IMG/VR virus record: IMGVR_UViG_3300001592_001590
Source of the DNA: an uncultured virus (IMG/VR IMGVR_UViG_3300001592_001590)
Taxonomy: Duplodnaviria > Heunggongvirae > Uroviricota > Caudoviricetes
Strand: one strand, 5' to 3'
Length of the DNA: 20,000 nucleotides
Made by a program: the position numbers and the translations under genes. Position 1 is the stretch's first letter. Every line of letters starts with the position of its first letter. This document shows positions 1,485-20,000 of the stretch, piece after piece. The notes beneath the pieces were generated by a model that was not told the DNA's origin, did no database searches, and saw nothing but the letters and a program-made list of their open reading frames with translations.

Positions 1485-1928
1485 TCACAGTAGGTGGATG
1501 AGCCTTTTGTAGTGAGCCCATTGCAGCCCGTCCTCAAAGTGCGTGAGCACCAGGTGAGGCTGCTGAGGCGCCAAATAGTCGTCGTGGTCGTCCACGATGG
1601 CGTACTTCTCGACGTTGCCATGGCGCTCCAGCCAGGCAAGCACTTCGTGACCGCGGCTGTGGTCAGCCAGCGTGGGGGTGACGTCCAGGATGTCCAGCTC
1701 GAGCATCTCCTGAAGCTCTTGCCGGGTATGGCGTTCCCGCCAGCTGCTGCAAATCACCACCCGGGCCCCGGTCTCGAAACACAGCTTGCGCACCAGCCCG
1801 AGGGCAACAGCGTCAAGCTTGCTTGGGTCCGTGGGGTGTTGGGGGTCGACCGGGCCACCCTGGGCCACACAACTGCGGGTGCTCAGGAGCACCCCGTCGA
1901 TGTCCAGAAACAGAACTTTGATGCCCAT
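1485..1928 (-). CDS. HAD domain protein, Swiss Army Knife RNA-repair-like family (HAD_SAK_2)
   Basis: VLFLDIDGVL motif I, VVICSSWR, RGHEVLAWL and YAIVDD motifs. Confidence 0.85.
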   Translation of the reverse strand: MGIKVLFLDIDGVLLSTRSCVAQGGPVDPQHPTDPSKLDAVALGLVRKLCFETGARVVICSSWRERHTRQELQEMLELDILDVTPTLADHSRGHEVLAWLERHGNVEKYAIVDDHDDYLAPQQPHLVLTHFEDGLQWAHYKRLIHLL

Positions 1929-5768: not shown

Positions 5769-7377
5769 TCAGTTGGGGCTGCTCGGAGGCTTGGGGGTCG
5801 CGTCGCGAATCAAGGAACCTGCATTGTCCCGCACGAATTCCACCCGGTTTTGCTCGGTGTACTGGTCCACCCGAGGAATCATGCCGTTGGCGCTGGTACA
5901 CGATGCGAGCTTGGACTCTGGGCCGCAGTCCCCCATCACCGTTTCGCTGAAGCTGCTGAGCACCTTGTCGTTGCCCGGTGAGGCGGTGTGGAAGTCTCCC
6001 AAGGTGCGGGGGCTTTACCTGGGTCGTTTCAGCTTCTTGTTGTACTTGTCCAGGTCCTCCGGCTTGTAGATGCCCTTGTTGACCCGAACGTGACCCAACA
6101 GCACGGCAGGGCTGGCCGTAATCACCGAGCCCAGGTTGGCGCCGCCAATGACTGCCATGCTCAACCCCACATAGGCCGCTTCCACGGCCAAGGCGGACGT
6201 CAGCGAGGAGAACCCAGTCACCAGCCCCTGGTTGACCAAGAAAGTTCCGAAGGTACCCATCGTGGCACCCGTTGATGCCCCTGCGGTTGCACCCGTGCCC
6301 AGGCTCAGGCCCGAGATACCCGCTGCGGACAAGATGCCCGCCAAGGCGAAGCTGCCCAGCACACCCAGGATGAGCGCCCCCAGGAAGCTCAACCCGCTCT
6401 TCTTTTGGTAGTCGATTTCCCACTTGTCTTCGTGGTCGCTCAACGTGCCACCGTCAAACTCCTCAAAAGCTACCCCTGAGACAGCCGTCTCAAACCGTTG
6501 GCAATCGTCCCTGTCCGGGTCCGGCGCGCAAATGGCGGTGTACGTGTTCGAGGTCGAGCGCGACAGCACGTCCAAGGGCTGTGCGATGAACCACTTGGAT
6601 TTGGCATGGGCATACACCCAAGTCTCGATTTTCTTCTTGAACAAGCTGCTGGACTTCTTGGTGCGTTGCGACAAGCGGGTGTCCGCAACCGACACCAGAC
6701 CCAGAGGTGCCCCCGCCAAGCGCATGGCGTGCCCGATGGCCACCTGAGCGGCAGGCATGCTGATGTTCTTGAAGATGTCCGTTCCCGGCTCCAAGAAGCT
6801 CTGAAACGGGTTCACGCCGGCGGTCATGCCCGTTTTGTAGGAGTCTGGGTGGATATAGCTGCGGTTGGCCTTCCAGTGGTCCCCATGCGCGGGAGAGAAC
6901 ACCGCATGGTACAGCCCGGTTGTGCTTCCTTGGGCCGTGCGGCCCTTTTCCAGTTTGAACACGTCAATGCGCAAGGTGGCGTCCACGGGGTTGTAGCGGG
7001 CAAACACGTACGGCACGTTGGCGGGGAACAGGGTGTTTGCATTGGCCACGTCAGAGGCGCTCATGCCCAGGGCCAAGGCCGTGCGGTTGGCCAGCGAGAC
7101 GGCCTCGCTGCCGCCTTGGATGGCCGATGTGCCGGGGGTGGCCACTGTGGGCATGTCGGCTACCCGCTGCCACTGCAGCTTTGGATAGACCACCGGCACG
7201 CCACCGATTCGCACAGCGGCGCATCGGGCGTCAGTGCCTGAGTCCGCTGCGGCCGCGCTGCACGGGAAAGACTGGGCGTGGGCCAGGGAGGGCAGGGTGC
7301 TTGTGAGCACCAGGCTGACACTTACGACGGCGCTCAGCGCCCGCTTGACAGCGGCAGAAAACGAAATTGCGAATCAT
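5769..7377 (-). CDS. Large exported/membrane protein of unknown function (~530 aa, interrupted by probable sequencing indels)
   Basis: ORFs 6015..7310 and 5769..6002 are in the same frame. Removing one base from each of three short runs in CTGAAACGACCCAGGTAAAGC restores L-N-D-Q-V-S. ATG 7377 is one base out of frame with a signal peptide (...KRALSAVVSVSLVLTSTLPSLAHA). Long Gly/Ala-rich hydrophobic segment near the C-terminus. Confidence 0.7.
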
Positions 7378-7468: not shown

Positions 7469-9497
7469 ATGTTCAAACTTTTCTCGACCCTCCTGGTCTG
7501 CCTGGTGGCAGTGGGCGCGCACGCACACGACCACCAGTCTCCCGTTCGCGTGACGCGCTCCAAGCAGCAAGGACGTGGCCTATGTCAGCCAGGAAGTCCT
7601 GCTGGCGGGCAGCTCCGCCACGTCAGTGTCGGTCGCGCCCCTGACGACCTCCAACTCGGGTTTTGGGCTCAGCCGCCTGTCCACCAAGTTCCCGGGCGCG
7701 CCGTTTGGCGCCATGCCTGTCATGTCCATCCCCAATCCGACCACGCAAACCGTGGCCCTGGAAGAAGCCGCGCGATGGGTCAAGGACGACTTGCCCGGGT
7801 TCCGTTCCCGCTATGGCGCTTGGCTCAAGCAAAAGGGCCTGTCCATGGGGTTTTTCAACTACACCCAGGAAATCACGGTCACCACGACCGTAGGCCCGAA
7901 GAAAAAGGCGGTGGCGTTTAACGCTACTTTTGACCTCAATGGCCGCCCCACCTATGGCAATGCCAAGATTGTGGACCCCGACCCGACCATCGTGGAGGCC
8001 ATGTACATTCCCCTGGCCACCGCCTCGGGCCTGCCCACGACCTGGAAGTATCCGGATGCGGGCAATATCAAGTGGCGCTTGCTCAATAAGAAGTACGAGC
8101 CATTGACCGGCTGGTTCACCGAGCCCACAGGGGGGGCCTTTGACACCCCAGAGGCCGACTCCACCTCTGACCAGGCGGTCAAGTGCCTGATGGACCTGCG
8201 CCACCCCGGTTGCTCGGGCCCGGTGGACATCCGCGCCCTCATGGACCGCGCCGGCGCCTCGTTTGCCATCGTCAACTACATCCGCAGCCTTACGCCCGTG
8301 TACGAAGAAGACGGCACGGACGAGCAGACCCCCAAGGCGGCCATCTCCGTGGACGAGCGCACCTGGAACTGCACCACGTACACCAACAAAGGCGCCTTTG
8401 GCTTTGTGCTCACGCTGATGGCGGACCAGTACCTGGCCGAGCCTTCCACGGAGCTCGTGAAGTTCCAGCTCTTGCAACAGTACGGGGGCAAAGGCGTGTC
8501 TCCCACCGAGCCCTATGAGAAATCCGTGCCCATCGCCACCCTGGCGGGCAAGCACCCGGANTCGGTCATCATCAGCCCCATGCCCGAGGACAACGCCNNG
8601 TGGCCCCGCTCGGACGCCAAGTTGATGAAGAACGTCATCTACGTGGCGCCCGTTATTGCCGTAGGCGGCAGCGGCGAAATCGGGGACGCTACTTTCTCCG
8701 GAGACATGACCGTGCGTCCGATTCCAGGCTCCGGCACCGACAAGGAATACTACATCGGCACCGTGGGGGACAACTACTGGGGCACAGGGCAATACGACCG
8801 CACGGTGAGCTTCAACCTGACCAGTCCCGAAACGTCCGAGATGTTCAGCATCGTCCAGACGGGCTTTGACGACCACATGCTGGTGGCGGTGAACGGCACC
8901 ACCGTGTACATCGGCGCGAACGGCGGCAACATGCTGGAGCTGGTGAACGGAACCCAAGAGCAGTCTTGTGTGCCCAATTCCGGCAGCTTTCTCTGCCAGT
9001 CCGCTTCGTCCACGTTCGTGACGCAGCCTACGACCCGCGAAGACGGAGACTGGTGCCCCGCAGGCACCCTCCTGAGCTCCGGGCCGCAAGGTGGTGGCTG
9101 CTACGCCACTACACAGCGCGCCTACAAATACTGCCAAGATAACACTTGGGGCGCCGACGGAGGCGGCGGCACCAGCTACACCTGTACCCAAGGTTGTGCC
9201 GCATCCATGGTGCAACATCTGTCCACTGGGGTGGGGTTTGGTCCGGGCTGCCTGCCCTTGGAGCGCGGCACGAGCTGGAACTTTCCGACCTCCATCGACT
9301 TGAAGCCCTACCTCAAGTCCGGGCCCAACGAAATCTTCATGCGCACCATCGTGGGCGGCGAAGGCGAAGGCTGGATTCGCGTGCGCACGCGCAGCTGCGG
9401 CTCCTCTTTGAACCTGGGCACCACCGCGCCTCCGCCGCCTCCTGGCACGGGCGAGGCTGGGGTGACGGACCGAATCAACGACGAGTCCAAGAACTGA
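7469..9497 (+). CDS. Secreted protein with C-terminal TraN-tip-like beta-sandwich domain (~675 aa, indels at 7518-7572)
   Basis: Signal peptide MFKLFSTLLVCLVAVGAHA at 7469 joins the 640-aa ORF through frameshifts. IGTVGDNYW, FDDHMLVAVNG, ERGTSWN, IDLKPYLK and VGGEGEGWIR resemble motifs I recall from IncC/SXT-type TraN. Confidence 0.6.
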
Positions 9498-10888: not shown

Positions 10889-11854
10889 GTGTTTCACAAG
10901 ATTAAGCAACGCTGGAGTGAACTGATGCTGGACCTCTCCGACCGCCATACGCCGCGGACCTTCGAGGCCCCGGCGGACCTTAGCGCCCCGTCCGTGGGCG
11001 ATGACATTCCTGTGCCTGGAAACCTGTACCGCCACTACAAGGGCGGGCTGTACCAAGTGCAAGGCCTGTGCACTATTGAAGCCTCGCAAGAGCAGGGTGT
11101 GCTTTACCAGGCGCTGGACCCCAACGCCCGTCAAGACGTGTGGATGCGTCCGCTGAGCGATTTCAGCGGCCCTACGCGAGTGGGTGGCATGCCTCGTTTT
11201 TCCAGCCTTCGCCATTCCACGCTGGAACCCCTGCGCCACTACTTGGCCCAAGACGTCCTCAACGACAGCGCGCTGCAAAGCATTTTGTCGCGGTACGACG
11301 AACCCTGGCGGTTTTTCCACGCCCGTCGGCACATCCTGGACATGTTCGAAAAAGCCCAGGAGCTGGGCATGGAGCTGAGCGCCGAGCAGTCGCTGGCGAT
11401 TTTGTTCCACGACATTGTGTACGTGCCTGGCGCCCCTGAGGGCCAGAACGAGCGCCAGTCCATTCTGCTGATGCAGGCCTTCAAGGGCCAAGTCCAGCGT
11501 GCGGAGACCGACTGGGCGCTGGTGGCTCGCGTCATTGAAGACACCATCACCCTACACCGCCAACCCACCGAGGCCGAAGCAAAAGCGGTCCTGGACCTGG
11601 ACATCGCCAACCTGGGGGACGACCCGGTGCACTTTTGTGCGTCGGACGAGATGGTGTGGCTGGAGAACCGGCACTTGCTGGAAGCCGCTGACGCTCGCAA
11701 GGACTTCGACACCCGTCGCCTGCGCTTTTTGCTGGCGCTGGCCAACCGCGGGCCGCTGTACCACACCAGTGCTCCCGCGCTGGAAGAATCCGCTCGCACC
11801 AATCTGGAAGGCCTGCGTCAGGCTTGGGTCCAGAAGTACGGGCCNACCCGATGA
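10889..11854 (+). CDS. DUF1653 domain fused to HD-superfamily phosphohydrolase-like domain
   Basis: LYRHYKGGLYQV...VLYQAL...VWMRPLSDF (DUF1653); RYDEPWRFFH...HI, AILFHDIVY, NERQS and LDLDIANLG (HD family). GGAG before GTG. Confidence 0.8.
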   Translation: MFHKIKQRWSELMLDLSDRHTPRTFEAPADLSAPSVGDDIPVPGNLYRHYKGGLYQVQGLCTIEASQEQGVLYQALDPNARQDVWMRPLSDFSGPTRVGGMPRFSSLRHSTLEPLRHYLAQDVLNDSALQSILSRYDEPWRFFHARRHILDMFEKAQELGMELSAEQSLAILFHDIVYVPGAPEGQNERQSILLMQAFKGQVQRAETDWALVARVIEDTITLHRQPTEAEAKAVLDLDIANLGDDPVHFCASDEMVWLENRHLLEAADARKDFDTRRLRFLLALANRGPLYHTSAPALEESARTNLEGLRQAWVQKYGXTR

Positions 11855-15286: not shown

Positions 15287-16834
15287 TTAGGAGACGGGTC
15301 TTAGCCCGGACCCGCAGCCTTGCCTCGAGGCAAGAAGGGCGCCCCTCAGAACAGCTGAGCCTGCTTTTGCTGTCGCAGCAAGGTTTCCCGCTGCCTCCAA
15401 AACGCCCGATTCGGGGGCTGCCTTGCCCTCCCGCAGCGCGAGTATCCGCTCCCGTGCTGCTTCTTGAGCAGCTATCAAGGAAACCAGGGGGTTCGGATAG
15501 GCGCCAGCACGCTGCGCTGCGGGCAGCTTCCAGGGCTCCTGGACAAAGGGTAGCGGCACTTGAGCCAATTCGGGTACCCACCTGCGGATGAACTCGCCAC
15601 GCGGGTCATGGTCCTGGGCCTGTTTGGTCGCGTTGTAGGTGAGCGGTCCGCTCAGGCGGGAAGTCCCCGCGTGAATTTGGAGCTGGTTCCAGTGGATTCC
15701 CGGCTCATAGTCCAAAAACTCCCGGGCCAGGTGCAGGCCCACTTCCGTCCAAGGCAACCACAGGTCGTTCACCGCAAAGGACGTGACCGTGCCGCGCAGT
15801 CGCATGTTCAGCCAGCCCGTTTGAGCCAGCATCCGCATTCCCGCATCGACCATCGGAAAACCGGTTCTGCCTTTCTTCCAGGCGTCCAGCCAGGCGGGGA
15901 TGCACTCTGCCTCTCGAACACCCTTGAACGCAGTCAGGTCGTCGACCGACTCAGACTCAACCTGCACCTCGAAGCTCTGCAGATAGGCGCTGCGCCAATA
16001 GAGCCGCTCCATGAAAAACTGTGCCGCGTCGTTCAACAAGGGGGAGTCCTCACTGGTCTGTAGCACGCCGCGCAAGTGCAGTATGACCTCCTGGTCCGAC
16101 AGCACACCGTGGCTGAGGTAAGGGGACAAGCGGGAACAGCCGCGCTCTGCCGTCAAGGGACTGGAAATCCGGGAGCGGTAAGCCAAAAGCTGTTCTGGCT
16201 GAAAGAAGGCCTCCAGCGCTTCAAGCGCCGCCTCTCGTCCACCTCTTTGCCGCAGGGGCTTGTCTTCGCCTGGGTGCCGGGGCGAGGGTCGTTGGCAGGC
16301 TTCTTCGAACAAGGCGGGGATAAGAGAGCTTGCGCAGGGCAGGGAGGCCGGAGGCACAAAGCTTGGGCGCTCAAGGCAGACTTGAACATGCCCTGCAAAA
16401 TCAAACGGCTCGCGTTTTCGGGCACTGCCTCGGCGAACCCCATTTTGGGGAACCTCAGTCCAGGGCACCTGGTTGCGCCGCGCCCACTGGGCAACCGCCA
16501 GGTCTCGCCGAAATTGCAGCATGCCGGTGGTTTCCTGGTAGGACCACAGGTGGGTGAGCCCATGCGCCTGGTGCAGGGCGTCCAGCGCCTCTTGCGCCTC
16601 CATGGTCAGCTCCAGCAAACGCGTTCCCCGCAGGGCCAGTTCCCCGCGCAGGCTGTCAAGGCATTCTTGGGCGAACGCCACATGTTGCGCACTGGTATCG
16701 GCGGCGCTAAGCCAAGACGGCTCGTGCACGTACAGAAACACCAGCGGGCCGTGGGATTCAACCGCGGCCAGTGCCTGGCGCAGAGGCTCATGGCTGTAAA
16801 TGCGCAGGTCTCGTTTGAACCAGATTGCTTGCAT
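15287..16834 (-). CDS. DNA photolyase/cryptochrome family FAD-binding protein
   Basis: IWFKRDLR, SRLSPYLSHGVLS, RLYWR, AWKKGRTGFPMVDAGMR.L..TGWLN.R.R, FLDYEPGIHW, QAQDHDPRGEFIRRWVPEL. The true end may be TGA at 15346 (...KQAQLF) if there is a +1 indel near 15406. Confidence 0.92.
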   Translation of the reverse strand: MQAIWFKRDLRIYSHEPLRQALAAVESHGPLVFLYVHEPSWLSAADTSAQHVAFAQECLDSLRGELALRGTRLLELTMEAQEALDALHQAHGLTHLWSYQETTGMLQFRRDLAVAQWARRNQVPWTEVPQNGVRRGSARKREPFDFAGHVQVCLERPSFVPPASLPCASSLIPALFEEACQRPSPRHPGEDKPLRQRGGREAALEALEAFFQPEQLLAYRSRISSPLTAERGCSRLSPYLSHGVLSDQEVILHLRGVLQTSEDSPLLNDAAQFFMERLYWRSAYLQSFEVQVESESVDDLTAFKGVREAECIPAWLDAWKKGRTGFPMVDAGMRMLAQTGWLNMRLRGTVTSFAVNDLWLPWTEVGLHLAREFLDYEPGIHWNQLQIHAGTSRLSGPLTYNATKQAQDHDPRGEFIRRWVPELAQVPLPFVQEPWKLPAAQRAGAYPNPLVSLIAAQEAARERILALREGKAAPESGVLEAAGNLAATAKAGSAVLRGALLASRQGCGSGLRPVS

Positions 16835-16899
16835 GTTCCGTATAGGCCCGGCGCTATACCCCTCAGAGCTCAAACAATGCAAACAGGAAGGAAATCGAC

Positions 16900-17415
16900 A
16901 TGAGAATCAACGACAACATGGTGTTGTTTTGGGGGCGCAAAGACATCTACTCTAACTGGCACCCCAGTCCCTTTGTACTGAAGGGCCAGCGCTACGCCCA
17001 CGTGGAGCAGTACATGATGGCCGCCAAGGCTCGGCTGTTTGGGGACACCGCGACCGAAGCCAAGATTCTGGCCACAACGGACCCCAAGCACATCAAGGCG
17101 CTGGGCCGCGAAGTTCGTGGCTACGTTGACGCCGTCTGGCGGGAGCACCGCTTGACGGTGGTCATCGAAGCGTGCGTGGCCAAGTTCTCCCAAAACGAGA
17201 AACTGGGCGCCATGCTATTGGCCACGGGTCAGCGCACTTTGGTGGAAGCCAGCCCCGTGGACCGGGTCTGGGGCATCGGGCTGGCGGAGGACGACCCCTG
17301 CGCACTGGACCCCGCCACATGGCGAGGAGAGAACCTTTTGGGCATCGCGTTGATGCATGCCCGGGACCACCTGGCCAAACAAGCCACACAGGGCACCACC
17401 GCCGAACTGTTTTAA
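16900..17415 (+). CDS. ybiA: NADAR (YbiA/DUF1768) family N-glycosidase
   Basis: YSNWHPSPF, EQYMMAAKA.LFGD, KALGREV, KFSQN, LVEASPVDRVWGIG, GENLLG; AGGAAGGA RBS. Confidence 0.93.
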   Translation: MRINDNMVLFWGRKDIYSNWHPSPFVLKGQRYAHVEQYMMAAKARLFGDTATEAKILATTDPKHIKALGREVRGYVDAVWREHRLTVVIEACVAKFSQNEKLGAMLLATGQRTLVEASPVDRVWGIGLAEDDPCALDPATWRGENLLGIALMHARDHLAKQATQGTTAELF

Positions 17416-17476
17416 CCCGTCATTCAACCTGGGCAGCGTCCGCGCTGTCCAGGTTTTTGTTTGCTCTCGCGCGGGC

Positions 17477-17516
17477 AAAGAGAAAGCCCCGCACGTTCAG
17501 GGAACGGGCAGGGCTT
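17477..17516 (-). terminator. Probable terminator for the 17556 gene
   Basis: Imperfect GC-rich stem AAGCCCTGC...GCGGGGCTT followed by TCTCTTT on the minus strand. Confidence 0.55.
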
Positions 17517-17555
17517 GAATTGGAATCATCGGTCAAGAGTGACCGGTGGCCGGCT

Positions 17556-18245
17556 TCAGGCTTTCGGCTCGGAGACGGTTTCGATGTCCTTGACCACGTA
17601 GCCGAGCCATCCCCACATCCACTCGTCGATGTCGGTCAGCTCGCACGCAGCAAGCATGGCCATCAGCGCAAAGCGTTCTGCGGGTTCACGCTTTTCGGCG
17701 CGGCCTCGTTTGTCGGTAGGGTCCTTGCTCAGCTGGCCCTCAAGGCTGGCGACCACCACGTCTTGGAGCCCCTTGGCCAGGACGCGTCGCGTCGGAGGAG
17801 CTTCATTGGCAAACTCGCTCGTCAAGTAGGCCTGGACCGCGTCCCACAAAGCCACTCGGTCGGCACTGTGCATCTGATGCAGGGCGTTCCAGGTGATGAT
17901 GCTTTGTTTGCTGTCCGCCAGCTTGCGAAGAGCGGTGTGCATGCATTCGCCCAGGCTTTCCAGCGCGTGCGGCTCCAGAGCTACAGGCACGTTGCCCTTG
18001 GAGTCCAGCCAAGCCCTCAGAGGAGGAAACTCAGGCCATTGCTCCTTGAGCAGGACGGCCAGCATTCGTTCTACCGTCAGGGTCACGCTCGCATGGAAGT
18101 GTCGAGACAGCACCTGGTCGTCTTTGTGCACTTGCATCAGCAAAGTAGGGGACTCTCGCTTGGAGGTTTCGCTCCAAGCATGTTTCGAAGGGGTCACCGA
18201 CCATGCGATGTTGTGCGTGCTCAGTGCTTGCAGCAGTGTGTTCAT
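17556..18245 (-). CDS. Hypothetical protein, 229 aa
   Basis: AAAGG RBS, ATG start, no recognised motif. Confidence 0.75.
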   Translation of the reverse strand: MNTLLQALSTHNIAWSVTPSKHAWSETSKRESPTLLMQVHKDDQVLSRHFHASVTLTVERMLAVLLKEQWPEFPPLRAWLDSKGNVPVALEPHALESLGECMHTALRKLADSKQSIITWNALHQMHSADRVALWDAVQAYLTSEFANEAPPTRRVLAKGLQDVVVASLEGQLSKDPTDKRGRAEKREPAERFALMAMLAACELTDIDEWMWGWLGYVVKDIETVSEPKA

Positions 18246-18314
18246 GGATACCTTTTTGTGGAGTTCAATTGCGCGCGATGGCGTGCTCGGTGAGCTTGGC
18301 CATTCGGCGACACA

Positions 18315-19092
18315 TCACTTTTTGGCTTCTTTGACGGGCAGGGGCAACTTGTCCAGGTCCGCAAGGTCACGGATGAAGACGTTCAAGTCTTGCAAGGTGC
18401 ACACCCCTTCTCGGCTGTAGTGGTTAGTGGTCGATACGACCTGCGCCGAGGGGAAATGCTGTGCGACCAGGGCCATCAGCAGTGCGCGGTTGGCATCGCT
18501 GTCGACCAAGGAGAGGTCTCGCTCCCCGGGCAGCTCGGTCAGCTCAAACCCGCGGTCTCGGAGGCTTTTGAGCCAATCTTCGTAGGTCACCTTGTCGGAG
18601 ACAGGGGACCGGGAGAGCAAACGTGGCCCAGCGCCAAACAGCATGCACGAGAACTGGACTTCCAGCGACCCGTACTGCGAGAAGCTCATCTTGCCGATGT
18701 GCCCAAATCCATGTTGGTCCCACCAGAGGTTGAGCTTTTCGCCCAGCACCGTCAGGTGAGCCTGCGTCTGGTGCGCGGAGCCCGTAAGCCCCAGCTGTTG
18801 CTCCAATTCGCGGACTTTCATGTTGGCCGCACAAAGGTCCGCATAGCGGGCTTCGCGGGCACTGGCGCTGTCCAGCTCGATGTCGAGCAGCGCGCACAGT
18901 TGCGTCAGGCGGGACTCTTTGAGGGACAGGACGTTGTAGGCCAACTCCAAATCTACCTCGGCTTTCGCCTTGATGCGCTCGGCAAGAAAGGCCATCGCGG
19001 TCAGCTCCTCGCGGAGCTCCTGGGACGCCACGGCGCGTTCGTCGTCGGTCAGTGTTTTGGTTTTTCCTGTCGTATTCTTGAGAGGGTCTCAT
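18315..19092 (-). CDS. Hypothetical protein with N-terminal coiled coil (apparent +1 indel near 19063)
   Basis: MRPSQEYDRK at 19092 joins TKTLTDDERAVASQELREEL of the 238-aa ORF if one A of an A5 run is removed. Confidence 0.7.
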
Positions 19093-19173
19093 TCAAAATC
19101 CTAAAAAGGTGGTCCTGTCTTCTATAGCCAAACAAGGATTTACAGCTTGGATTCGCTAAAATAGTTCTGGAGG

Positions 19174-19245
19174 CGGACATTAAAGTTGAGGACTGGGCTT
19201 CCCTCTAGAGAGTCACCTTCCCGAGGGGCACCCGGACATTAAAGT
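19174..19245 (+). repeat. 13-bp direct repeat CGGACATTAAAGT x2 (putative TnsB binding sites)
   Basis: Exact copies at 19174-19186 and 19233-19245, each followed 5 nt later by ACTG. Confidence 0.85.
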
Positions 19246-19544
19246 CCAGAACTGACCTGAGTAATGAATCCACGCATATCCTGCAAGACTTCAAGCGCTT
19301 GCTCAAATGCGCCTCTGCGCGTCCATGTGCGATGCGCGGTTGCTGCGTTTCGCCAGTCCCCCACCTTGTAGGTGCTCTTGCGCCAAGTCTCCCCCGTGGC
19401 GAGCTTACGCAGTACACCGTCGAGGAGGCTGCGCTGGCAGAGCTCATAGGAGTAGGCCCGTTTGCGGGCTCCCGCTAGGAGGGGGCCAATTGCTGACCAC
19501 TCGTCGTCGGTCAGCTCCAAGGTGCCGTCAACATGAGACGGCAC
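19239..19544 (-). CDS. DUF4096 (IS5-type transposase N-terminal HTH)-like domain, probably the C-terminus of the upstream ORF
   Basis: LTDDEWSAIGPLL...RSLLDGVL....TGETW...GDW.......W...GAFEQAL pattern. No RBS; in frame with the upstream ORF across one TAG. Confidence 0.65.
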   Translation of the reverse strand: MPSHVDGTLELTDDEWSAIGPLLAGARKRAYSYELCQRSLLDGVLRKLATGETWRKSTYKVGDWRNAATAHRTWTRRGAFEQALEVLQDMRGFITQVSSGL

Positions 19545-19550
19545 TGGCGT

Positions 19551-20000
19551 CTAAACTCTTTTGTTGAGATTTCTTCCTTTCGCCCAATCGCGGTCGAGGA
19601 ACGCAATCCGATGCTCGTGACCGACTACGGGTAGGTCGGGGTGTTCAGAGGGGGTAATCGAGAGAATTCGAGCCTCAGTCACCAGTACGGCGTTCGGCCC
19701 TTGAACCCCCGCAAGAACGACTTCGGCGTTGCAGTTGGCAAGGTCGAGGTCGAGGTGCCCCGCCATCGCATGGCGATGAACGCTGTCAGCCATTCTGCGG
19801 GCTGTAGGGTGGGAGGCCATCCAACGCAGTGGCCCGTGCCAACTACTGTGAGTTTCTTGCACAGAGGAAGTGGCCCACTTGGCGTCAACGACGATGTCTG
19901 CTGTGCCATTGGAGTAATCGAGCCAAAGAGTGCGCTCCAGCGCGCTAGGGCCGAACATTTCATGAAGCAGCTTCGGGGTCGGCCTAAAAAGCGCGCGCAT
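19551..20000 (-). CDS. TnsE N-terminal-region-like protein (partial, start outside window)
   Basis: RALF...SALERTL, LRWMASHPTARRMADSVHRH and VLVTE are collinear with the remembered Tn7 TnsE segments RSLF...TALQQEF, LVWLFSDQDVMDSYESIFRH and YLVEE. Transcribed toward the transposon end. Confidence 0.5.
   Translation of the reverse strand: MRALFRPTPKLLHEMFGPSALERTLWLDYSNGTADIVVDAKWATSSVQETHSSWHGPLRWMASHPTARRMADSVHRHAMAGHLDLDLANCNAEVVLAGVQGPNAVLVTEARILSITPSEHPDLPVVGHEHRIAFLDRDWAKGRNLNKRV

Follow-up and report, generated by a model that had tools for sequence, protein, structure and literature searches.

What do two adjacent open reading frames (ORFs) at the edge of a viral contig, divided by a single stop codon and lying next to a pair of TnsB-type repeats, have to do with Tn7? 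The DNA in question is a 20,000-nucleotide (nt) stretch of an uncultured virus record (IMG/VR IMGVR_UViG_3300001592_001590), which we call the window as a whole, and the original prediction, made from its sequence alone, had read the two frames (ORF A and ORF B, Table 1) as one gene for a candidate new Tn7 target selector. Here, we find that the window ends within a Tn7-like transposon, whose left end occupies positions 19168-20000 and which extends to the right of the window. The best explanation of the whole, which we regard as reasonably probable, is that the last gene of this element encodes a second target selector composed of a TnsE-like N-terminal domain and a C-terminal DUF4096 helix-turn-helix (HTH) domain, and that the gene is broken in this copy.

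A two-domain protein family encoded in Tn7-like elements

The ORF list with translations confirmed the described layout, in which both ORFs share one frame with only TAG, ACG and CCA between them and the final TAA of the gene (19241-19239) falls within the second copy of a 22-nt TnsB-type repeat. The proposed insertion sequence (IS) 5-like HTH at the C-terminus was likewise verified, as ORF B matched the Pfam family DUF4096/PF13340 (E 1.1e-11, 45.2 bits, cut-off 34.3), and in a Pfam scan of the window gene, translated across the stop as X, DUF4096 lay at residues 163-234. Against the NCBIfam model NF033580 (IS5 family), ORF B reached 45 bits versus a cut-off of 110, with only positions 4-83 of 258 matched. 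ORF A had no match in Pfam or NCBIfam, nor at E<=10 among the chain sequences of the PDB.

A HMMER scan of ORF A covering 1.84 billion representative proteins gave 157 matches at E<=1e-3, including 45 at <=1e-10 and three at <=1e-30. Nearly all of these proteins are ~340-350 amino acids (aa) long and ORF A aligns to their residues ~100-250; for the closest one, an uninterrupted 345-aa protein (P0001) with 68% identity to ORF A, phmmer aligned ORF A residues 1-147 to residues 100-249. The ATG of ORF A at position 20000 corresponds to an internal methionine in the homologs (...VPALALMRALF...) and is not a start codon, and therefore ~100 N-terminal residues lie beyond the window edge. Among 12 family members scanned with Pfam, 11 carry DUF4096 at ~260-340, the remaining one (P0003) being a fragment of 248 aa whose sequence runs on in a different frame. 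In the source databases, the family proteins are labelled only 'transposase' or 'hypothetical protein'.

For the genomic context, a pattern scan with one genome per species was used, in which a small family alignment served as the query because a 50-sequence one was too diverse; a scan of genome contigs with ORF A alone had found no relatives. The scan returned 13 loci, from Curvibacter, Derxia (two), Rhodoferax, Hydrogenophaga, Advenella, Ideonella, Malikia, Castellaniella (two), two unclassified Proteobacteria metagenome-assembled genomes (MAGs) and one Rhizobium MAG, and a metagenome scan added two more (L022 and L023), for a total of 15. L002 is from Derxia gummosa DSM 723 and L004 from Rhodoferax sp. 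OV413. The hosts are mostly Burkholderiales. The uninterrupted fused homologs that were sought exist at all 15 loci, where the reading frame of both domains is unbroken and the proteins measure 333-374 aa; the visible window gene is 86-89% identical to the proteins of L022 and L023 (86% for L022). On the sequence evidence, ORF A and ORF B thus form one gene of a conserved two-domain family of ~345 aa.

The family gene sits in the company expected of a Tn7-like element, as homologs were predicted to follow tnsABC-tniQ/tnsD and do so in 13 of the 15 loci. In these, Pfam identified tnsA, a Mu-type tnsB, tnsC (TniB/AAA_22) and tniQ plus tnsD upstream and on the same strand as the family gene. At the two exceptions (L012 and L023), only 3-5 kb of upstream DNA is present, without tns genes and too little to tell; L022, the closest relative with enough upstream DNA, does have them. 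The family gene follows directly after tniQ/tnsD, the position of tnsE, in five of 13 loci, while cargo lies between in the other eight. This cargo is mostly of the defence type (L006, L007, L008, L022 and L023; Table 1) and includes SAVED/SMODS/E1-E2 genes (CBASS-like), an OLD-family ATPase with a UvrD helicase (Gabija-like) and large SMC/AAA_13 ATPases.

The DNA-binding tail of the family varies among members: three proteins (P0045, P0061 and P0101) of 433-490 aa have two DUF4096 stretches or an extra HTH_3 domain. Additionally, the fragment P0003, obtained from a different sample, shares 75% identity with residues 43-125 of ORF A and then switches to an alternative frame (MRSSTAIGRKEEISTKEF...) that is also open in the window (19511-19606, minus strand), which suggests a second, frameshifted broken gene copy elsewhere. 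An exact 14-nt direct repeat (TCGTCGTCGGTCAG) occurs at 19039-19052, just upstream of the flanking-gene start, and at 19501-19514, within the DUF4096 coding part, probably by chance.

Homology to the TnsE N-terminal domain

TnsE directs the insertion of Tn7 into replicating or conjugating DNA, binds 3'-recessed ends and has a beta-clamp motif of the PQLELARALFL type. Pfam has no model for its N-terminal domain; the C-terminal domain is covered by TnsE_C (PF18623), which Pfam scans of TnsE proteins do show. A profile of 114 family members was compared by hhalign with seven TnsE proteins, taken from genomes matching PF18623 (8 of 401 sampled genomes). This mixed set matched at 94.4% (E 8.6e-8; 142 columns, family 64-215 against TnsE 115-262). 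A set of 19 TnsE proteins of the canonical branch, including NCBI-named ones, matched at 91.2% (E 9.9e-7; 139 columns, 80-218 against 88-243). Both sets align to the family in the same register and cover the region of the clamp motif. The four Tn6022-like proteins reached 93.6% (E 2e-7; 140 columns, 66-215 against 114-259) and the three with TnsE_C above cut-off 68% (E 4.7e-5; 154 columns, 82-236 against 117-289), these subsets keeping the register. Among single sequences, L017 gave 80% (E 1.4e-5; 178 columns, 59-236 against 134-322), L014 10% (E 3.1e-3; 104 columns, 73-186 against 83-198) and L016 no match. The real comparison scored 64.6, and none of the controls, made up of one reversal and 20 shuffles of the columns, exceeded 16.5.

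The alignment brings the family motif VPALALMRALFRP column for column onto the TnsE motif IPQIEFARVLFF. The conserved residues P95, R101, L103, F104, W162, A169, R170 and S175 of the family correspond, in the same order, to P112, R118, L120, F121, W177, A184, R185 and S190 of TnsE; W162 is invariant in the family, and A169 and S175 are nearly so. An AlphaFold 2 (AF2) model of a homolog, built from the family alignment (predicted local distance difference test, pLDDT, 93.4; predicted template modelling score, pTM, 0.84), has a mixed beta/alpha N-terminal domain (residues 1 to ~245), a low-confidence linker and a four-helix C-terminal domain (263-345). The modelled N-terminal domain may fit the description of the TnsE N-terminal domain as PriB-like (passages of Faure 2023, PMC10293859). 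Foldseek searches with the model returned nothing at E<=1e-3 in the PDB or BFVD, a search of the ESM Atlas gave no usable match, and an exhaustive structural aligner produced weak rows only.

As judged by these profile comparisons, the family's N-terminal domain is homologous to that of TnsE. The predicted TnsE pattern of the visible part, from ...MRALF onwards, is hence borne out with mixed as well as canonical TnsE, and so is the replacement of the TnsE C-terminal domain: PF18623 was absent from the 12 family members and the read-through window gene scanned, in which only DUF4096 was found. No DDE catalytic domain was detected in any family member in the Pfam and NCBIfam scans. Of the three outcomes named as refuting the prediction (no profile or structural similarity to TnsE, homologs that are never fused, no tns genes to the right of the window), none was observed; the third concerns DNA beyond the window, and tns genes are present in L022, the closest relative with enough upstream DNA.

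A decaying left end outside the attachment gene of relatives

The outer boundary of the element can be placed at the 8-nt terminus TGGAGGCG. DNA alignment with L022 and L023 shows ~90% identity up to (C)TGGAGGCG at 19168 and unrelated sequence beyond. Inward of it, the window has two 22-nt direct repeats, CGGACATTAAAGTTGAGGACTG and CGGACATTAAAGTCCAGAACTG, that are 86% alike and 59 nt apart. They have the 13-mer CGGACATTAAAGT in common, of which the window contains two copies versus 0.15 expected, with two matches in 2 of 200 shuffles; no third copy of the repeat better than 14/22 was found in the window. Downstream of the family gene, two or three spaced inward copies of the core GACATTAAAGT (one mismatch allowed) occur in eight loci (L004, L005, L006, L009, L011, L012, L022 and L023), and the outermost copy in relatives is preceded by an 8-nt terminus beginning with TGG. 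The terminus reads TGG, and not TGT, in the window and in all six relatives compared, and non-TGT ends have been reported for some Tn7-like elements (PMC9881144, in part). At the other seven loci (L001, L002, L003, L007, L008, L010 and L013), the few hundred bases downstream of the gene (up to ~1 kb in L002) showed no repeats, and their left ends were not located. The left end of Tn7 is described as an 8-bp end with three separated 22-bp sites (PMC9308760, in part), and the same layout of an 8-nt terminus followed by spaced ~22-nt repeats is found at the window end.

The number of sites differs between copies. L022 and L023 have three, spaced 59 and 45 nt start to start, while the window has two, with a 45-bp deletion relative to L022/L023 at ~19247/19248 that fuses the middle and inner sites into a hybrid site. 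In metagenome run X7, the flank of the window is joined to a one-site end (59-nt skip, 19173 to 19233), and a copy with three sites, next to a comEC-type flank that precedes 19167, occurs in this run as well. The left-end TnsB sites have thus been lost stepwise by recombination between direct repeats, from three in relatives to two in the window and one in X7.

The gene itself is damaged too. Where L022 and L023 read GTT TCG ACG, the window reads GTT TAG ACG, a single C-to-A change on the coding strand. Comparison of assemblies for the base call at 19551-19553 showed that TAG is kept in contigs of runs X1 and X6, and that base 19552 is G, giving TCG, in contigs of X5 and X7. The stop is a genuine allele, carried by a copy in decay; the notion of a read-through gene did not hold, as the relatives carry a plain serine codon. 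A sequencing error was rejected with TAG present in both X1 and X6, even though X1 may be the source of the window. TAG as a sense codon or programmed read-through was also rejected, given the serine codon in close relatives and TAG as the end of one of 18 likely window genes. The window copy is accordingly a dead allele, and interest lies in the family.

The insertion is polymorphic, since run X5 holds both a contig that departs from the window after 19169 (the empty site) and another that spans the junction. In five relatives (L004, L005, L009, L022 and L023), the left end abuts a DUF4131 ORF (Table 1) and the flanks are alike in sequence. We take DUF4131 to be the N-terminal domain of ComEC-type proteins, and the arrangement suggests a comEC-type gene as the attachment site (att) for the TniQ/TnsD pathway in these five elements. 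Interruption of comEC is not established, because the second half of the gene was not found among the ORFs upstream of tnsA in L003, L004, L005 and L010. No tRNA genes were detected in L006, L011, L012 or the window. The flank of the window is unlike the DUF4131-gene flank of the five relatives, and by this comparison its insertion lies outside their attachment gene (off-att).

What kind of replicon received it is suggested by plasmid matches of the flanking proteins. Three of these proteins (Table 1) are all matched by Variovorax plasmids (NZ_LR594667.1 and relatives), on which the homologs of 6015-7310 and 7575-9497 are adjacent and divergent, as in the window; the top plasmid row for 18315-19031 is a Burkholderia gladioli plasmid (43.9% over 96%). 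A homolog of the 7575-9497 protein is present in only 17 of 401 sampled Burkholderiales genomes. At the nucleotide level, blastn of the flank against these genomes gave short local matches only and no synteny, distant blastn against plasmids with 8 kb of the flank yielded three matches, all short, and megablast of 17000-20000 against plasmids and phages gave none. There is no plasmid hallmark gene in the window, and an exact 51-mer from it had no match in a viral contig collection. These observations suggest an accessory replicon, possibly a plasmid, and the window may belong to a megaplasmid related to the Variovorax plasmids of ~800 kb. Further along the flank, HAD_SAK_2, DUF1653-containing, DNA photolyase and NADAR proteins are encoded among many ORFs without a family, and several ORFs match PHROG families without known function.

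Table 1. Positions of features in the window and in homologous loci.
Feature	Sequence	Coordinates	Strand	Details
Terminal 8 nt of the element, TGGAGGCG	window	19168..19175	plus	end of similarity to relatives and empty-site contig; ambiguity ~2 nt
Outermost TnsB-type 22-nt site, CGGACATTAAAGTTGAGGACTG	window	19174..19195	plus	
Inner TnsB-type 22-nt site, CGGACATTAAAGTCCAGAACTG	window	19233..19254	plus	overlaps gene stop
ORF A	window	20000..19551	minus	149 aa
ORF B	window	19544..19239	minus	101 aa, GTG start
N-terminal-domain part of the TnsE-like gene	window	19551..20000	minus	~residues 100-249 of the ~345-aa family; gene runs off window
In-frame TAG nonsense codon	window	19551..19553	minus	TCG (Ser) in intact relatives
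Linker and C-terminal DUF4096 HTH domain (contains ORF B)	window	19239..19550	minus	PF13340 match
Target DNA	window	18315..19167	minus	238-aa gene (19031..18315), no known function, and upstream AT-rich spacer
Flank protein, 238 aa	window	18315-19031		186 plasmid records (tblastn); Variovorax ~800-kb plasmid, 44.5% over 84%
Flank protein	window	7575-9497		33 plasmid records, 25 typed conjugative; best: Variovorax ~800-kb plasmid, 38.9% over 95%
Flank protein	window	6015-7310		6 plasmid records; best: Variovorax ~800-kb plasmid, 42.7% over 97%
HAD_SAK_2 gene	window	1485-1928		
DUF1653 gene	window	10889-11854		
DNA photolyase gene	window	15287-16882		
NADAR gene	window	16900-17415		
Cargo stretch	L006	4939-9615		
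Cargo stretch	L007	5370-9650		
Cargo stretch	L008	7060-9693		
Cargo stretch	L022	6350-9406		
Cargo stretch	L023	1553-4718		
DUF4131 ORF	L004	17388-18311		
DUF4131 ORF	L005	11904-12731		
DUF4131 ORF	L009	20197-20967		
DUF4131 ORF	L022	10837-11346		
DUF4131 ORF	L023	6052-6870		

Proposed role and comparison with known systems

We propose that the family protein would act as a second target selector of the element, beside TniQ/TnsD. Its N-terminal domain, which resembles that of TnsE also over the region carrying the clamp motif there and has a putative oligonucleotide-binding (OB) fold of the PriB/single-stranded DNA-binding protein (SSB) type, would recognise a structure tied to replication (single-stranded DNA, a recessed end or the clamp) and recruit TnsC. 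The DUF4096 HTH, standing where TnsE has its duplex-DNA-binding TnsE_C, would hold the neighbouring duplex DNA, and the outcome would be insertions outside the TniQ/TnsD attachment site. In the window, the gene is present as a broken allele (TCG to TAG), and the left end of the element is eroding as well.

The data show the anatomy, the homology, the synteny, the single-base nonsense change, the loss of one TnsB site, the off-att position and the empty-site allele; selector activity, contact with the clamp or TnsC, and a preference for plasmids are inferred. Several points weigh against this proposal. Clamp binding is uncertain because the aligned motif (residues 96-103) sits, in the AF2 model, in a confidently folded helix rather than a flexible peptide. 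The similarity to TnsE needs profiles, with one single canonical TnsE (L014) reaching only the 10% given above and L016 by itself nothing. Any tns genes of the window copy would lie beyond base 20000, outside the window, where an assembly contig continues for ~13 kb. That the flank is of plasmid nature is judged from a plasmid-only database, in which the flank protein at 17556-18245 had no match, and among 72,556 plasmid records, tblastn with the family protein recovered two DUF4096-only matches and nothing full-length.

A more far-reaching version of the proposal is that the family is a third, so far unrecognised branch of TnsE, which kept the replication-reading, TnsC-recruiting N-terminal domain and exchanged the duplex-binding C-terminal one for an IS-derived HTH, and that it serves a plasmid-directed pathway of mainly Burkholderiales elements, several of which are located in a comEC-type gene, the window being an off-att, megaplasmid-like insertion that has its empty site in another sample and is now in decay. 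We rate this combination at somewhat below even chances. Of the predicted domain-swapped selector for plasmid targeting, the architecture stands, whereas plasmid targeting goes beyond the evidence, which is circumstantial only and consists of one off-att insertion with an empty-site allele, in DNA that has its best plasmid matches among megaplasmid genes.

Alternatively, the same protein in the same transposon could be a sequence-specific selector comparable to TnsD, in which the HTH reads a defined DNA, such as another attachment site or an inverted repeat of the IS5 type that is frequent on plasmids, and the TnsE-like domain only recruits TnsC. By Pfam and NCBIfam matches, IS5-family transposases bind DNA through an N-terminal DUF4096, and the doubled DUF4096 or added HTH_3 of P0045, P0061 and P0101 is what a modular sequence reader would show. 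However, no common sequence has emerged at off-att sites, of which one, that of the window, is clearly seen; for site-specific targeting, these elements already have a TniQ/TnsD that carries a TnsD-type extension; and the conserved TnsE-type N-terminal domain, with its putative SSB/PriB-like fold, points to recognition of structure. We consider this alternative unlikely.

Less likely again is an accessory regulator, i.e. an end-binding, immunity or transcriptional factor such as an HTH repressor at the left end. The overlap of the gene with the left-end TnsB sites in the window lineage, the HTH domain at the end of the protein and the cargo that separates the gene from the tns operon in eight of 13 loci would agree with such a role. 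On the other side stand the N-terminal homology to a known selector and the tnsE position in the five loci without intervening cargo, and Tn6022-type tnsE is also often found near the left end and far from the core genes, according to passages of PMC10293859. Finally, a chance juxtaposition of an IS5-family transposase remnant (ORF B) and an unrelated ORF A, for which the match of ORF B alone to the IS5-family model and the stop codon between the ORFs might speak, is refuted by the uninterrupted homologs (fused in 15/15 loci and 157 database clusters), the lack of a DDE domain in any member, and a stop that is one base from serine and absent in two other metagenomes.

The family has been little noticed so far. 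A full-text literature search found no paper pairing DUF4096 with Tn7 or PF13340 with TnsC, and none describing the family. Faure et al. 2023 described two TnsE branches and TnsF, and its supplementary locus list contains at least two loci in which a gene 'operonized' with tniQ is labelled PF13340/DUF4096 (PMC10293859, in part); the family is thus present, unnamed, in these data and not discussed in the text passages available. In the available part of Benler et al. 2021 (PMC8649781), tnsE was detected via PF18623, with the remark that homologs of weak conservation, or plasmid selectors not yet known, were possibly missed. An excerpt of a 2024 review gives TnsE as the only known selector family without TniQ. 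If the third-branch version is true, the N-terminal half of TnsE acts as a selector module that can be transferred between proteins, and TnsE-type selectors are undercounted wherever tnsE is searched for by PF18623. A natural exchange in which this half alone is retained would reveal where in TnsE target selection and recruitment reside, would extend TnsE-type targeting to a further clade of Tn7-like elements and would offer a compact selector (~345 aa) for mechanistic work.

In comparison with known systems, the likeness to IS5-family transposases is confined to the C-terminal ~80 residues, which match PF13340 above cut-off and NF033580 at positions 4-83; those transposases have an N-terminal DUF4096 followed by a DDE domain, whereas the family has DUF4096 at its C-terminus and no DDE domain. 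With TniQ/TnsD and TnsF, the family shares the presumed role of choosing targets and the modular use of borrowed DNA-binding domains, but it has neither a TniQ domain nor a tyrosine-recombinase-like domain, and its elements carry a separate TniQ/TnsD gene. The remote branch of Tn6022-type TnsE is, as a branch, the best profile match of the family (93.6%); these proteins are ~560 aa long and keep a weak TnsE_C match (22.9-27 bits), which the family lacks, and their gene is described, in passages of PMC10293859, on the opposite strand, whereas the family gene and the tns genes share one strand.

Also among the closest systems is canonical TnsE of Tn7 (e.g. Psychrobacter P0190, NCBI 'Tn7-like element transposition protein TnsE'), to whose N-terminal domain that of the family is, by profile, homologous. 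Both have the P..L/I..R.LF motif and the W, AR and S positions, both are encoded in an element with tnsABC-tniQ/tnsD, with the family gene in the tnsE position in five loci, and both consist of an N-terminal domain, a linker and, at the C-terminus, a DNA-binding domain, in that order. They differ in length (~345 aa versus ~520-540 aa, the family linker being much shorter), in the C-terminal domain (DUF4096 without TnsE_C versus TnsE_C), in the hosts (mainly Burkholderiales for the family) and in the attachment gene, which is of the DUF4131 (ComEC-type) kind in five family elements and glmS for Tn7. We would best classify the protein as a TnsE variant with one domain exchanged, which belongs to TnsE through its N-terminal domain and genomic context and not through its C-terminal domain.

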